Shown here: one piece after another, positions 9,965 to 16,312 of the stretch | Numbering within the stretch: the stretch's first letter is position 1 | How the letters are laid out: each line of letters begins with the position of its first letter | Assembly: GCA_045863295.1 (NCBI GenBank) | Contig: BTWA01000038.1 | Span: forward strand, 1 to 48,316 | Source of the DNA: Candidatus Hydrogenedentota bacterium | GTDB taxonomy: Bacteria > Hydrogenedentota > Hydrogenedentia > Hydrogenedentales > SLHB01 | Reading direction: 5' to 3' | DNA length: 48,316 nucleotides | Notes under the pieces: model-generated | What the model was told of the DNA's origin: nothing | Seen by the model: the letters and a program-made list of their open reading frames with translations, nothing else | Databases searched by the model: none | Program-made: the position numbers and the translations under genes

Positions 9965-12900
9965 TTAGGAAGGATTGTCTTCTGCGTCATGCTCTATTGC
10001 TCTACTAAATACTGTATTAACATACCAAGCACAATTGTAGTATGGCCCCCAAAATGTGTTGTGCGATCTCTGAAAGTTCTCCCATTCGGCAGTGGCCTGA
10101 TCGCATACATGGGCGCTATATGGGCCATTCTGCGTACAAGTATACTGCTTACTCGGGGATACGGCACCTTGGTATTCAATCTTTGTTATAGCTGCACGTC
10201 TCGGTAAAAATATTGCTGAACATGTTCCTTTAAATCCTCCTTCGACACCGTCCTCGGGCATGGCCTGCCACTTATCTCCAAACTTATCCCCATTATGGTC
10301 GACAATCATGAATCTATGAGCAAAATCGGAATCCTCTATGCACTTCCATAAGATACATGTTTTCTTGCTTTGATTTGGTGAACCGCTTCTAGTCGCAACA
10401 GCTGTCCCTTGGTACAATGGCATGCCGTACTGTGATATGGTAAAGCCTTTTCCGTCGAACTCAGTCTCTCCTACTACTGCTCTCCCCTCATTCGTCGAAG
10501 CCCGAGCGTTTCCGCCTCTATCCTCCACAAAATAATAGTACTCATCGGAGATAGAGTCGAATATGGCCAATGGATCGACCGGTTTACCAGACAAAATCGA
10601 AGTGACTAATGTATTGGATGCTCCGTCTTCAACATTAAGTAGTCTTCCGTTCGCGGTCCACCGGAATTGCAGTGTGGTGTCAGAATCGAGTAAATGTAAT
10701 AGCATATCCCCGCGATACACATATGTCGAGTCACTTTCTCCCCAAAAGTCAGTTTCAATTTCTGCCAATATGGGTCCTTGGAAATAGGTGAAGTCCGCAG
10801 TGAAGCCACCGTTCGTCTTCTGCGTCATCCGTCCCCAGTCGTCATAAGAAAGGTTCGTCGTGCCGCCGGGAGTGGAGGTCATGCTGGTGAGTTCGTTGGC
10901 ATTGTCGTACGCAAAGGTCGTGGTGGTTTTCAGGTTCGAGCCGGTGAACCGCACGTCGTCGAACTCCGCCGTGGTCCAAAACGCCGTGACTAACCCGCAC
11001 TGGGCCGACGTGACTTCCGTGAGGCTGCTCGTGCTCAGCACTTCCTCCGGCATGTCCCCGTCTTCCCAGCGCCACACCGTGAGGTCCGCCCCATCGGCCA
11101 CGACGCGCACGTTGTACCACACGTTCTGCGTGGTAGGCAGCGAATTGTTCGTGTCCGGATACGCCGTCGCGCCGCCGTCCGTCTGGCGGATGCTCGCCGT
11201 GCCCCCGCCGTAGAACTCCACGCGGACGAAATCGTTCACGCCCGTATACCGGGCCCAGAAGAGTACATCGCCAATGGAAGACGTCCGCCGGTAGCGGAAC
11301 GTGGTATCGTAATCCGCCTCGTCCTGGTCCACCTTCCAGATGAGGTCGTTCGCCGCGTTGGCCACCGTATCCGCCAACACACCGCCGGACGCGGACCACG
11401 TGCCCGAACTCACCGTCCATCCTGTGTAGTCCGCATCGTTAAAGTCGTCCATGAACGGCTCGCTACGGGTGATCATGTTGTCCCCGTCATCGTAGGCATA
11501 ATCGTACTCGCCCACGATATTCGCGGAAAACACATGGTCCGCCACCGTCAGTCGGTTGCGTCCATCGTATTCGTACTCCCAGTGCGTGCCGTCATCCTGG
11601 GCAATCTGCTCGATGCTGCCTCCCGCGGACAAGGTGTACTCGAAACTCTGCTTCGTGGTTCCGCCGTCTTTGTGATCGATCAAGGTCAGTCGGTTCCGCG
11701 CGTCGTAATCGTACTCGGTCGTCATGCCATTGGGATGTTCAAAGTCCGTGGTTTGTCCCAGAGCATTGTAGTTGAACTCCCATACTTTGGAGCCCGGCGC
11801 GGTAATCGTGCTGACTTGGTTCAGATCCGTATAGGAGTACGTGGTGGTGTTGCCATGGTGATCCGTCATTGAGGTGGCATTACCGGTCGCGTCGTAGGCG
11901 TAAGTGAGGTACTCCGTGTCGTAATCAGTCAACCGGGTCAACCGGCCCGCGTTGTCGTACGCGTATTGAAGACCGTTGGTGTCGTCGATCCAGTCCGCCA
12001 ACTTGGTTAGCCGGGCCGCACCGTCGTAGGCATACACGGCTTCGTACGTGTTCCCGCCTGAGGTATACGCCGTCTTCGTCATCAGGCCCGTGGTTCCGTG
12101 AAAAAAATACTCCGTTGGATCCGTGGTTCCAGATCCTCCGGCACCTACTTTCGTCATTCGACCGAAGGCGTCGTAAAGATACTTCGTCACCTTGTTCACC
12201 GGGTCCGTCACCGAGGTCAGCCTGCGGGCGTTGTCATAGGCGTAGCTCCAGGTGTGGTTCAGCCCGTCGGTTACGCTCGCTAAGTCGCCCGCGCTGTTGT
12301 ATGTGGAGATGGTGTCCACCACCACATCGGACGTCAGCGTCATTCTCCCAAGGTGATCATAAGCATATTCGACAGTCTCACCGTCAAAGTCCGTATGCTC
12401 CTCAAGCTGCCCAAGGAAGTTATAGACACTTTCCGATTCGTTGGCACCGCCGGACGGAGACACCACCTGCGTCAGGCGGTTCATAGAATCATAGAAATAA
12501 TCTGTCTCTACACTCATGGCGTTGGTTACCTTGGTAACGTTGCCGTTGCTATCGTGGGCATAGAGCGTCTCGTTGTTCAAGGCATCCTTCACCTTGGTGA
12601 GGAGTCCATTCGACCCGCCGCAACCGCCGCAACCGCCGTAGGCATAAAAGAAAGTCGTTGTCTTGCTTCTAGGATCGGTCATAAGCGTCATGTTGCCCAA
12701 TGAGTCATAGGCATAGCTCGTCACTTGGGACATGGGGTTTGTCACCGAAGTGACTTGCCCGTAGCTGTCGTATTGCACGGCGGTTGTGTGCCCAAGCGGA
12801 TTCGTAATGGACGTGATATTGCCCGCGGTATCGTAGGCATATACCATCCCCGCCGCATCGGTGTCCGGCGCCACCACCTTGGTTAGCCGTTTCAAATTGT

Positions 12901-15900
12901 CATAATAATAAAGAGTATCCAGTCCCCGTTCATCGGTGGACTTCGTGGCATGCAAGCTTGCAGCGGGATAGGCGTAGGTAACAGTCTGGTTGTTTACGTC
13001 AGCGACCGTGGAAATACGTCCGCTCGCATTATATGTATAGGTTTCGACTGTGATGTTTCCCGGCCGGCTCGTGCGTGTCAAATCGCCTGATGCGTTGTAT
13101 TCGTATGACCAACGTTCGTAGGTACTAGCATCAAGGTAGTAGTCATCATACTGAACCCGGCTCAAGTCGCCGCTGATCGGCCGGTACACCCGTTTTACCA
13201 ACGGCGTCGTGTTGTCCAGCCCGGTGAATGTAACCACGCCCGTGGACACGCTCCGATCGAACTCGGAGGTCAATCCCGCGGCATCATCAATCTCGATCGT
13301 CGTGGCCTCGTACTGGGAACTGCCGTTCAAGGAGTACGCCCAAGTCAACGCCGTTGTCACACCCTTTTTGTCCGTAATACTGGAGATGTAACGAGATTCG
13401 GCAACGCCGCCTGTGCTCCCATAGGCATAGTCCACCGTTTTGCTTGCGTTGTCGGTCACGCGCGTCAATTCATTCGAAGGATTGTAGCCGTAGGTCGTGG
13501 TTTGGAGCACCGTGGTGCTCTCCTTCAACTCGACCTTCGTAATGAGATTGCCCGCATAGGCCAATTGTAAGTGTTGCGAGGCGCCGCTTGAAGACACCTT
13601 GGTCAGACGCCCCGTGCCCACCGCGCCATTGTAGTCCAACGAAATCGTATTGCTGGAAGCATCCTTGATGGCAGTCAATCGCGCATACCGATCCGCATCC
13701 GCAGTCGCCGCAGAGAACTCATAGGTCAAGCCATCGGGAAATGTGAGCGTATATGCCAGGGTGGTCGTGTTGCGCTTTAATGTGATCGCCTTCTCTCCCG
13801 TGTGTCCTGTGGAAGTGCGGGCGTAGTGGTTATTTCCACCACTTGTACTCTGGAAATTATAGACACGCGGATATCCCTGGGAGTCGAAATAGGTGACCGT
13901 GAACGGCGGAGTCCCGACAGATGCCACGAGGTAGGTATTCAAGGTGTGAGTCCAGCCGTCCCCGATGTTATTTTTCCATACTTTGTCTGTTCCCTGGAAC
14001 TCCCCGCGATGGTAGCCCATGTCATTCGAATAAAACCTTCGAAACTCAAATTCCATAGGACCTATAACGCTTACTCTTGCATCTGTCACCGCATGAGAAA
14101 ACGTTGAGGTGAATGCAAAAACCTGCATTTCGTAGTAAGAATTGAATTCCGTCGCACCTAGATAACCCATGTCAACTACATTTGAACAACCAACACCCGT
14201 ACAGTCGGCCCCAAAACGGAGAGCGTGGTCGATTGGGCAAGTGGGTGGTTCGCCAACACCGCCGCTACCGCCATTGCCACCGTTTTCGCAGTTTGTACAC
14301 GGCGGCGGCGGCGGATAAACTGGCCTTCCAGGCGTATTGCCGCCTTTCGAGGTCATTAGTGTTCGAAGGTCCAGAACCTCCGCAACATCAATTGCATGAT
14401 CTTTCATTACGATTGCATCACCACTCCATCTCGCTTTGAAAGCATTCACCGGTTGAAGCAGATTGGCCTCGTCATCGCGCAATCGCACGAGTCCATTCTC
14501 AACGGATTCAACGAGCACAAAATGGCGTCCGTCTGTAAACGCGATGGCAGGCAGGGTTAGTTCATCCAGCGAAGCCACCCGGACACCCGACACGGCAACG
14601 TTGTTCTTTGCCGCCGCGTCGATCAGGCCTTGCATCGTTGTGCCCGAGGAATCCGTACTTGCTTGAAGCGCCAATTCTTCGACGGAGACATTGACTCCAA
14701 CAAGGTAAAGCAACGCGTGCAACGCCTGCGGACCGCAAAGCTGCGAAGCCGCCAATTGGGATCCGCCAGCTTGTTCTTGGGGCACATCCGCGACTTCAAC
14801 CGAACCCAGTAGATGTCGCGTCAGATAATCAAGTTCATATTCCGCAACTCTGGCGTATTGCGTATCGGGATACTCTTCAATCACGCGGGCATAGATGGCA
14901 GCCGCATTCGTATCGTCGCTCGCGGCGCTGTAAAGCGCGCCGAGTTGCGTGAGAGCCAGACCGGTCTCCCGTTTGCCGGGAAACTCGTTTACAAACGCCC
15001 AGAGGTCCTCTACGCCAGCATCTTGATTAAACCGGTTCACTTGCTGCTTTGTGATCGCCATTTGCAGCTTCAGCCCGCGGGCGGTAGCGCCCTTCGGATG
15101 ACCGACGACTACCAACCCACGTTCACACCAGGCGATTGCCTCGTCGTACAGTCCCAGGTCTGTGTATGCCAGCGCAATGTCGATTGCCAGTTGGCCTTTC
15201 ACCCACGAATAAACATATCTATTCTCGAACAAGGCATTCACGGCCCCTGCCCTTACTTCCTCAATCAGATTCGCCTGATGAATATAGGCAGCGCCGCTGT
15301 CGTGTGCGTTCTTGTTTGCATATTCCGTGAGTACTGAATGGGCAACCAGACGGGCATATGAACTTTGCGACGTATTGGCGATGGTACGAATCTCAGCGAT
15401 GGTTGCCTTCAAAGCCTCCGTGTCCATGAACGATGCTGCGGCGTAGGCACTGTCGGCCACCGCATGGGACAATGGATGTGCGGCGTGCTCACGTAGAAAT
15501 TCAAGTGCGGTATCGCGCGCCTGCGAAACATACTGGAGGGCAATCTCATTATCTTCTTCTAGCAACCGGTTAACGTTATTCACGTACATGCTGGCAACGA
15601 GGTACCTGCCGTTGACGTCCAACGATTGCCATGCGGGGAGAGAAGCATAGATATCCACCAGGACGGACGGATTGAGTTCACCGTCCAGCACCCGGTTCAT
15701 AACCCGGAAGATCCGTTTGTCCGCCTGCAACGACTCCCACGTACCCGGAAAATTGCAGAAGACTTCAAAATACGTGGACACCGCGCTTGTGTAATCGCCC
15801 GCGCCCGCCAACAAATCCCCATCCGCCAACGCCGATTGCGCTTGAGCTCCCGCTGTTGGTTCCACCCGCGCGATTTGAGACTCGCCACCGCCTTGTGCCA

Positions 15901-16312
15901 GCAGCTTCTTCTCTGCGTCCTTCGAGGCGTTGATTTCCGCCTTCTTCTTGTCTATCGACGCGAACATGGCCGCCGCCGCCGGAAGCGTGCGGTTATTCTG
16001 GGCTAATAGCACACGTTGCCCCGCGCGGTTAATGGGTGCGACTACATTATTGGATTGGTCTTGATCTAAAACGCCCGAATCGTCACCTGCAGGTACCTTG
16101 GCAAGTTCGATGGAATCCGTCTCGAATGATTCCTTGGAACTGGCTTTATGCCATGGCAGGTCTCGCCACGGTTCAAGCGTATCTTGCTCGGTAGGCGTGT
16201 TCGGCAGCGTTGCCAATACGTCCGCAACGCCAGTGGCGCTTGGTAGAAATGAAGCCAGTGTGATGACGGAAACAGCCCGCAAGACCTTGGGAAATGGCGC
16301 CAACTTATGCAT
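9965..16312 (-). CDS. Secreted RHS/YD-repeat protein with TPRs, C39 peptidase domain, lectin-like insert and variable C-terminal tip (polymorphic toxin-like)
   Basis: Signal-peptide-like N-terminus with a GGAGG RBS before ATG 16312. TPR motifs (A..Q.G..Y...IEEYP), C39 motifs QLCGP / HFVLV / LRD, many YD repeats (YDxxGxLTxVTDP), and a DDF...W...FDDV beta-sandwich. Confidence 0.9.
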   Translation of the reverse strand: MHKLAPFPKVLRAVSVITLASFLPSATGVADVLATLPNTPTEQDTLEPWRDLPWHKASSKESFETDSIELAKVPAGDDSGVLDQDQSNNVVAPINRAGQRVLLAQNNRTLPAAAAMFASIDKKKAEINASKDAEKKLLAQGGGESQIARVEPTAGAQAQSALADGDLLAGAGDYTSAVSTYFEVFCNFPGTWESLQADKRIFRVMNRVLDGELNPSVLVDIYASLPAWQSLDVNGRYLVASMYVNNVNRLLEEDNEIALQYVSQARDTALEFLREHAAHPLSHAVADSAYAAASFMDTEALKATIAEIRTIANTSQSSYARLVAHSVLTEYANKNAHDSGAAYIHQANLIEEVRAGAVNALFENRYVYSWVKGQLAIDIALAYTDLGLYDEAIAWCERGLVVVGHPKGATARGLKLQMAITKQQVNRFNQDAGVEDLWAFVNEFPGKRETGLALTQLGALYSAASDDTNAAAIYARVIEEYPDTQYARVAEYELDYLTRHLLGSVEVADVPQEQAGGSQLAASQLCGPQALHALLYLVGVNVSVEELALQASTDSSGTTMQGLIDAAAKNNVAVSGVRVASLDELTLPAIAFTDGRHFVLVESVENGLVRLRDDEANLLQPVNAFKARWSGDAIVMKDHAIDVAEVLDLRTLMTSKGGNTPGRPVYPPPPPCTNCENGGNGGSGGVGEPPTCPIDHALRFGADCTGVGCSNVVDMGYLGATEFNSYYEMQVFAFTSTFSHAVTDARVSVIGPMEFEFRRFYSNDMGYHRGEFQGTDKVWKNNIGDGWTHTLNTYLVASVGTPPFTVTYFDSQGYPRVYNFQSTSGGNNHYARTSTGHTGEKAITLKRNTTTLAYTLTFPDGLTYEFSAATADADRYARLTAIKDASSNTISLDYNGAVGTGRLTKVSSSGASQHLQLAYAGNLITKVELKESTTVLQTTTYGYNPSNELTRVTDNASKTVDYAYGSTGGVAESRYISSITDKKGVTTALTWAYSLNGSSQYEATTIEIDDAAGLTSEFDRSVSTGVVTFTGLDNTTPLVKRVYRPISGDLSRVQYDDYYLDASTYERWSYEYNASGDLTRTSRPGNITVETYTYNASGRISTVADVNNQTVTYAYPAASLHATKSTDERGLDTLYYYDNLKRLTKVVAPDTDAAGMVYAYDTAGNITSITNPLGHTTAVQYDSYGQVTSVTNPMSQVTSYAYDSLGNMTLMTDPRSKTTTFFYAYGGCGGCGGSNGLLTKVKDALNNETLYAHDSNGNVTKVTNAMSVETDYFYDSMNRLTQVVSPSGGANESESVYNFLGQLEEHTDFDGETVEYAYDHLGRMTLTSDVVVDTISTYNSAGDLASVTDGLNHTWSYAYDNARRLTSVTDPVNKVTKYLYDAFGRMTKVGAGGSGTTDPTEYFFHGTTGLMTKTAYTSGGNTYEAVYAYDGAARLTKLADWIDDTNGLQYAYDNAGRLTRLTDYDTEYLTYAYDATGNATSMTDHHGNTTTYSYTDLNQVSTITAPGSKVWEFNYNALGQTTDFEHPNGMTTEYDYDARNRLTLIDHKDGGTTKQSFEYTLSAGGSIEQIAQDDGTHWEYEYDGRNRLTVADHVFSANIVGEYDYAYDDGDNMITRSEPFMDDFNDADYTGWTVSSGTWSASGGVLADTVANAANDLIWKVDQDEADYDTTFRYRRTSSIGDVLFWARYTGVNDFVRVEFYGGGTASIRQTDGGATAYPDTNNSLPTTQNVWYNVRVVADGADLTVWRWEDGDMPEEVLSTSSLTEVTSAQCGLVTAFWTTAEFDDVRFTGSNLKTTTTFAYDNANELTSMTSTPGGTTNLSYDDWGRMTQKTNGGFTADFTYFQGPILAEIETDFWGESDSTYVYRGDMLLHLLDSDTTLQFRWTANGRLLNVEDGASNTLVTSILSGKPVDPLAIFDSISDEYYYFVEDRGGNARASTNEGRAVVGETEFDGKGFTISQYGMPLYQGTAVATRSGSPNQSKKTCILWKCIEDSDFAHRFMIVDHNGDKFGDKWQAMPEDGVEGGFKGTCSAIFLPRRAAITKIEYQGAVSPSKQYTCTQNGPYSAHVCDQATAEWENFQRSHNTFWGPYYNCAWYVNTVFSRAIEHDAEDNPS

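Follow-up and report, generated by a model that had tools for sequence, protein, structure and literature searches.

A C39 peptidase followed by its own double-glycine leader in RHS proteins of Candidatus Hydrogenedentota: a likely self-cleaving prodomain

Introduction

C39 peptidases of the PCAT/AMS type, such as LahT, ComA and PCAT1, cleave after double-glycine leaders. The leader is the N-terminal part of a separate substrate, has hydrophobic residues at positions −12, −7 and −4 and ends in GG or GA, and the peptidase carries a Cys-His-Asp triad with a spacing of 16 residues between His and Asp. According to the LahT report (PMC6363468), the bound leader is helical from −11 to −4 and linear from −3 to −1, with residues −4, −7 and −12 lying in a groove, and the Gln six residues before the catalytic Cys is 4.3 Å from the intermediate. 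This Gln is suggested to form the oxyanion hole in another report (PMC6959990), and its role is disputed.

RHS/YD polymorphic toxins such as RhsA, Tse5 and Rhs1, together with the Sec-exported forms treated in Zhang et al. 2012, combine a plug, a YD shell and variable tails, and may carry PAAR/VgrG at the N-terminus. RhsA undergoes an N-terminal cut, the mechanism of which is given as unknown in PMC8765631. In the portions consulted of Zhang et al. 2012 (PMC3482391), C39 appears as a toxin domain only (Tox-PLC39), not as a processing domain.

C39 domains that act as toxins include Cpe1 and StbD. StbD-CT is a precedent for a C39 cutting its own chain: as described in its report (10.64898/2026.05.07.723447), it cleaves itself in cis after GG and needs a reductant. 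In these proteins the GG precedes the peptidase, and the peptidase is a C-terminal toxin. Having a C39-like fold does not guarantee cleavage at GG: an archaeal C39-like protein of a different architecture is reported in PMC13642728 to have no GG-cleaving activity.

Here we describe a protein encoded in a window of 48,316 nucleotides (the whole stretch of DNA analysed, contig BTWA01000038.1 of a Candidatus Hydrogenedentota bacterium). It is neither a PCAT nor a T6SS effector. Unlike in PCAT/AMS, there is no ABC transporter, and peptidase and leader share one chain, with the leader coming just behind the peptidase; unlike in StbD-CT and Cpe1, the peptidase forms the conserved, processing portion of the protein and has a complete leader behind it; and in place of a PAAR/VgrG N-terminus the chain opens with a predicted signal peptide, a TPR region, the C39 domain and the leader. 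In the literature searched, which covered few subscription journals, we found no paper in which a C39 domain is followed by a fused leader. The parts and the concept are known, and the arrangement of a C39 domain followed by a leader appears to be undescribed.

Results

Architecture of the C39-RHS gene

The gene occupies positions 9965−16324 on the reverse strand, where it forms one open frame of 2119 aa from a TTG codon, with the order signal, TPR, C39, leader, plug, RHS and C-terminal domain. The database protein (P0002) has 2115 aa, i.e. it starts at M5 of this frame, and the corresponding ATG at 16312 is the likely start of the gene. A predicted Sec-type signal peptide spans residues 5 to about 34 (16223−16312, on the reverse strand like all further features unless stated), with a basic n-region and a hydrophobic stretch at 17−28; its hydropathy is 1.92 over 12 aa, a reading from the sequence and not from a signal-peptide predictor. 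It is followed by an all-helical TPR-like solenoid (residues 160−505; 14810−15847), which shows weak Pfam TPR matches, is CpoB/YbgF-like and is modelled by AlphaFold as helices with pLDDT mostly above 90. The C39 peptidase domain covers residues 525−642 (14399−14752), as defined by Pfam (PF03412), by its structural match to LahT (6MPZ) and by residue conservation. A TPR-C39 prodomain had been part of the original prediction, and the TPR matches, the helices and the C39 match agree with it.

Downstream of the peptidase lies the leader L651-x4-L656-x4-G661-G662 (14339−14374), with a predicted cut between G662 and N663 (14339/14338). The sequence that follows is rich in Pro, Cys and Gly (residues 663 to about 720; 14165−14338) and is the prospective new N-terminus. 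This enrichment, also predicted originally, is common to the family: the 60 aa after the GG contain at least two Cys in 67 of the 77 C39-RHS members defined below, with a family median of 3 Cys and 35% Pro+Gly.

The RHS body begins with a DUF6531-like plug (residues 751−818; 13871−14074; weak Pfam PF20148 match) and continues as an RHS/YD-repeat shell (residues 819 to about 1975; 10400−13870) that matches PF05593 (RHS_repeat, E 5e-74) and TIGR01643 as well as solved Rhs structures, and ends without the core autoprotease. A DP[VI] motif precedes the plug in many Rhs proteins; none is present before the plug of the query, and one of the 54 members examined carries it. A beta domain (weak PF06439; residues 1626−1751; 11072−11449) is inserted in the YD shell of the query and of an orphan cassette on contig C29, and is not found in P0003 and P0005. 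A CxxC motif of the GGCGGCGG type lies mid-shell (residues 1231−1236; 12617−12634) and occurs also in P0003, P0004 and P0005. The chain ends in a variable C-terminal domain (residues 1984−2119; 9968−10375), a candidate toxin with no Pfam match and low GC3. A promoter and terminator scan gave no excess over shuffled sequence.

A family of C39-RHS fusions

A word search found three homologues, and a profile of four sequences matched 35 of the 135 genomes of the home phylum that made up our survey. The C39-bearing family occurs in 33 of these 135 Ca. Hydrogenedentota genomes, at 47 places. Because the first search profile included the leader, the phylum search was repeated with a C39-only profile. 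This leader-free profile, built from family members, returned the same 47 places at 111−162 bits (next best 75.7); the repeated search also gave 20 weaker C39 matches in frames of up to 1084 aa, two of which were inspected.

A HMMER library search added members, some of them named Omnitrophota, Nitrospirota or Paenibacillus. Pfam architectures and an ESM Atlas cluster of 58 C39/RHS proteins bear out the earlier guess that such fusions were already in databases. In a metagenome scan 2 of 21 loci belonged to the family, and a plasmid search returned ABC exporters only. Four very long members (L067, at G063:C26, L068, L072 and P0024), with open frames of about 2900−6570 aa, have the same C39 start. 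A tree of the C39 domains (95 rows and 119 columns, from a quick search, with about half of the RHS rows) did not resolve well enough to tell how often the module arose. After duplicate removal, the family set comprised 77 distinct C39-RHS fusions (41 genome loci and 36 library proteins including the query), with a mean C39 identity of 35%.

An intact peptidase is followed by a conserved leader

The query matches Peptidase_C39 (PF03412) at residues 527−642 with an E value of 2e-15 (57.2 bits, cut-off 22). Translation and the Pfam match confirm the catalytic residues, and their positions, that had been read from the sequence at the outset: Cys530 in QLCGP (14735−14737), His601 in HFVLV (14522−14524) and Asp617 in LRD (14474−14476). 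Across the family the Cys is present in all 73 sequences that cover it and the His in 77 of 77; the third residue is Asp in 62 of 77, Glu in 6 and neither in 9. The fold and the Cys-His-Asp triad with its 16-residue spacing are those of PCAT/AMS peptidases. In contrast to those enzymes, the family does not conserve a Gln at the position six residues upstream of the catalytic Cys: the query has Leu524 there, and 5 of the 77 members have Gln. Judged by its residues, the peptidase of this family looks active.

The leader was also as first described, with GG at residues 661−662 (14339−14344), Leu at −12 (651) and −7 (656) and Ser at −4; Lys stands at −3. The same prediction named loss of the GG in homologues as the result that would refute it, and we find the GG strongly conserved. 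A regular expression for the leader (hydrophobic-x4-hydrophobic-x4-G[GA], counted within 45 aa of the C39 end) matched 68 of the 77 fusions near the C39 end, compared with 82 of 2796 windows elsewhere in these proteins. When sites were anchored by a profile, they ended in GG in 67 members, GA in 7, GK in 2 and VG in 1, so that Gly stands at −2 in 76 of 77 and a GG/GA ending in 74 of 77. Position −12 is hydrophobic in 71 and position −7 in 74 of the 77, and L, I, V, M or A occupies −4 in 66, which is the pattern of PCAT/AMS leaders. These leaders differ from PCAT/AMS leaders in that Glu(−8) is uncommon (the query, with Arg/Thr at −9/−8, departs from this consensus) and in that Lys or Arg occupies −3 in 52 of 77. 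The leader sits 19−22 residues past the end of the C39 domain in 63 of 77 members.

The site after the C39 domain outscores every other leader-like site of its protein in 72 of 77 members by a leave-one-out profile, which in the query scores it at 15.2 and the next best site at 3.6. A score of at least 9 was reached by none of 10 ABC exporters, 15 C39-DUF1573-like proteins or 857 background windows. The regular expression is carried by 56 of 63 clusters at 60% identity and by 52 of the 59 members that score at least 85 bits on C39 alone, although the homologues are related and these conservation counts are thus not independent events. P0170, a member found later and absent from training, has its leader at +21. 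TIGRFAM and Pfam leader models gave no match on the leader segment of the query.

AlphaFold models of residues 517−674 and 160−674 (mean pLDDT 90) both place the leader block at pLDDT 93−94, with a helix at −10 to −5 (residues 653−658), a bridge at −3/−2 (660−661) and, in the peptidase, a short strand at the G-T-T loop. The best structural match of the modelled C39 domain is LahT 6MPZ (Z 16.9, rmsd 1.6 over 118 residues), and the C39 toxin structures 8SSK and 9L5U match at Z 13.5−14.3. The predicted shape of the leader, read from confidence and secondary structure and not from contacts, matches that of the leader bound to LahT.

A docked leader fits both self-cleavage and inhibition. It could be a built-in inhibitor, uncleaved or cleaved slowly, that blocks the peptidase until delivery, with the peptidase acting on other proteins as a second, N-terminal effector; the lack of conservation of the oxyanion Gln and the known use of C39 domains as toxins (Cpe1, StbD) are in line with this. 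An inhibitor should, however, avoid a scissile GG or GA, which 74 of 77 members keep together with an intact Cys-His pair, and known C39 toxins are C-terminal and variable, whereas here the C39 domain is conserved and it is the tails that vary. We regard this explanation as improbable, and consider it likely that the C39 domain cuts its own chain after G662.

Secretion context

A hydrophobic, signal-peptide-like start in 42 of 51 family members makes Sec export of the C39-RHS protein likely. The query protein contains no ABC domains by Pfam, and beyond the signal its 19-aa hydropathy peaks at 1.42. We were not able to find T6SS markers: the 96% complete genome has no VipB or Phage_base_V match, and the protein has no PAAR. 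Seven secretin matches in the genome are over cut-off. No exporter or secretion gene is conserved beside the family gene, as judged by Pfam on 47 of about 70 neighbours. The gene directly upstream of the query, a DUF1573/Ig-like gene (16606−17697), recurs in that place in only 2 loci (L066 and L080); C39-DUF1573 fusions without the leader are common among the library matches. Downstream of the locus lie an IS66 transposase remnant (8374−8784, forward strand) and, within 263−6930, type IV coupling-protein-like, SWIM and PD-(D/E)XK genes, which together suggest a mobile region.

In 7 of the 77 members (L038, L049, L063, L080, P0008, P0012 and P0022) extra double-glycine leader copies scoring at least 13.7 are found near the N-terminus, before the TPR region and about 350−480 aa before the peptidase, so that sites other than the tethered one may also be cut. 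Two such copies each occur in P0012 and L038; in L093 and P0020 the GG region behind the C39 domain is doubled.

These upstream copies would also suit a leader that serves type I secretion and is cleaved in trans, whether by a second copy of the protein or by a peptidase-containing ABC exporter distinct from it. Such exporters are known to use this motif as their export signal, and some genomes of the phylum do encode C39-ABC exporters (L088 and L089). The query C39 is, however, the only one over the Pfam cut-off in its 96% complete genome, the leader is internal and at a near-fixed distance from the peptidase fused to it, the members mostly start with a signal-like segment, and their conserved neighbours include no exporter. 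We hold cleavage in trans for export to be doubtful, and cleavage in cis of a Sec-exported protein to be the preferred reading.

The RHS core, the tail and the downstream gene

The query lacks the RHS core autoprotease: it has no TIGR03696 match and scores −0.8 bits with a core HMM. This part of the original prediction stands; the idea that the missing autoprotease belongs to the system does not, and we rejected it. Of 41 complete members, 38 have the core aspartyl autoprotease, ending in PxxxxDPxG; only the query, P0018 and P0024 are without it, and the orphan cassettes of the genome keep it. There are seven further RHS core matches in the genome (C29:2878−4669, C61:613−1957, C37:57995−59282, the ends of C24 and C12, C62 and C87); five of them were read, and all are orphan cassettes in which the core is intact and the tail differs. 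One homologous orphan carries Ntox16. A short remnant resembling the N-terminus of the gene (44% over 50 aa) lies beside a shell fragment at G000 C68:11600−12273 (L106), suggesting a collapsed second copy.

The shell of the query diverges from the orphan cassettes after about residue 1846 (about 1846−1975), and ~57 core residues are missing. MAFFT aligns the sequence RFMIVD..DKFG as a shrunken core, but the ESM Atlas recognises residues 1978−2119 of the query as one domain family, and we favour a deletion of about 57 core residues. A contig from another study spans 10314−10564, across the place of the missing core, without a mismatch; an assembly artefact at the tail junction is thus unlikely and was not supported.

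Tails are polymorphic in the family (38 tails in 37 groups). BLAST of the query tail against the tail of the C12 orphan found nothing. Comparison of the tail with the ESM Atlas gave 0.95 to mostly unnamed clusters, some members of which are IcsB_M (14−21%), and 0.94 to TseH-like proteins; with His2003 and Cys2098 these matches offer a lead, and only a lead, to a permuted papain-like enzyme. The 319-aa gene downstream (8963−9922) has an N-terminal hydrophobic segment, weak HEAT repeats and low GC, and its product is a candidate immunity protein by position alone. The plug, the YD shell, the variable tails, the core autoprotease of relatives, the immunity-like downstream gene and the orphan cassettes are all features of RHS/YD polymorphic toxins, from which the query copy differs in lacking the core. 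The Rhs-type protein is probably antibacterial.

The missing core could also mean that the family processes itself and that the query is a decaying gene whose cassette has lost the RHS core and whose motif is a relic, an explanation compatible with self-cleavage. The diverged end of the shell, the IS66 remnant downstream and the Ser at −4 of the leader agree with decay. Against it, the frame is open for 2119 codons, the triad and the leader are intact, with the high site score given above, and the reading frames of the tail and of the downstream gene are unbroken; pieces of the gene also occur in an RNA library, where DNA carry-over is possible. We think it unlikely that the query is such a relic.

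The same module beyond RHS proteins

Four giant proteins (P0055, P0112, P0118 and P0121; 2450−3237 aa, partly incomplete) have a signal-like start, a C39 domain and a leader. Two of them are named Omnitrophota and one Ca. Gorgyraea. For Omnitrophota giant proteins, a preprint (10.1101/2023.11.21.568195) proposes that a C39 near the signal peptide cleaves the giant chain; it gives the cleavage points as unknown, and the word 'glycine' is absent from its main text.

A second group of matches is of a methanogen type, with three proteins named Methanothermobacter, Methanothermus and Methanobacterium. The pattern, found in P0051, P0073−P0075, P0082−P0086, P0088, P0103, P0107, P0114, P0117, P0120, P0127, P0129, P0146, P0148 and P0150, is a C39 domain, then L[TS]xEEMxxIKG[K/R/Q], then a short variable tail that is often cationic or hydrophobic. 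The residue at P1 in this archaeal set is thus non-canonical, the leader ending in G-K/R/Q. The leader follows the C39 domain by exactly 20 residues in 4 of 4 giant proteins, ending in GA or GS, and is present after it in 20 of 23 methanogen-type proteins, fractions that may be inflated because these matches were ranked by a leader-containing profile. By their sequence pattern, the methanogen-type tails are candidates for self-released peptides.

Discussion

We propose that the query is an RHS polymorphic-toxin-type protein whose C39 domain likely cuts its own chain after G662, releasing the prodomain of signal, TPR, C39 and leader from the RHS shell. Both the cleavage and its taking place in cis rather than in trans are inferred. 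The protein would be exported by Sec. A tether of 8−10 residues would let L651 and L656 enter the hydrophobic groove of the peptidase and place G661-G662 in the active site; the cut after G662 would release the N-terminal third of the protein, and the Pro/Cys/Gly-rich segment from N663 would become the new N-terminus of the RHS body. The leader would stay on the peptidase after the cut and block it, which would make the module a single-use processing switch. The TPR solenoid may serve as a chaperone, a tether or an export adaptor. StbD needs reducing conditions, and activity of the C39 domain after Sec export is therefore uncertain.

The C39 cut would stand in for the N-terminal autocleavage that T6SS Rhs proteins undergo. 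In contrast to RhsA, a dedicated peptidase and its site are present here. Since the DP[VI] motif is so rare in the family, and the N-terminal cut of RhsA has no known catalyst, this step may fall to the C39-leader pair. The toxin would then be freed by a second cut, made in most members by the RHS core. As the query has lost the core, its tail would remain on the protein or leave it by another route.

The C39 domain with its own leader may be a portable, single-use self-maturation cassette that is shared by RHS toxins, both in Ca. Hydrogenedentota and in other phyla, by giant proteins of Omnitrophota and by small methanogen proteins, a generalization to which we give about even chances. A compact domain of this kind that removes itself could serve as a tag in protein engineering. 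For polymorphic toxins it is likely a new processing module in which the exact bond can be named, and it turns the usual bacteriocin arrangement around, placing the enzyme and the leader on one chain with no transporter. If the generalization is true, it would provide the first predicted cut site for the giant proteins of Omnitrophota, and the methanogen proteins would release short, variable, bacteriocin-like peptides without an ABC exporter.
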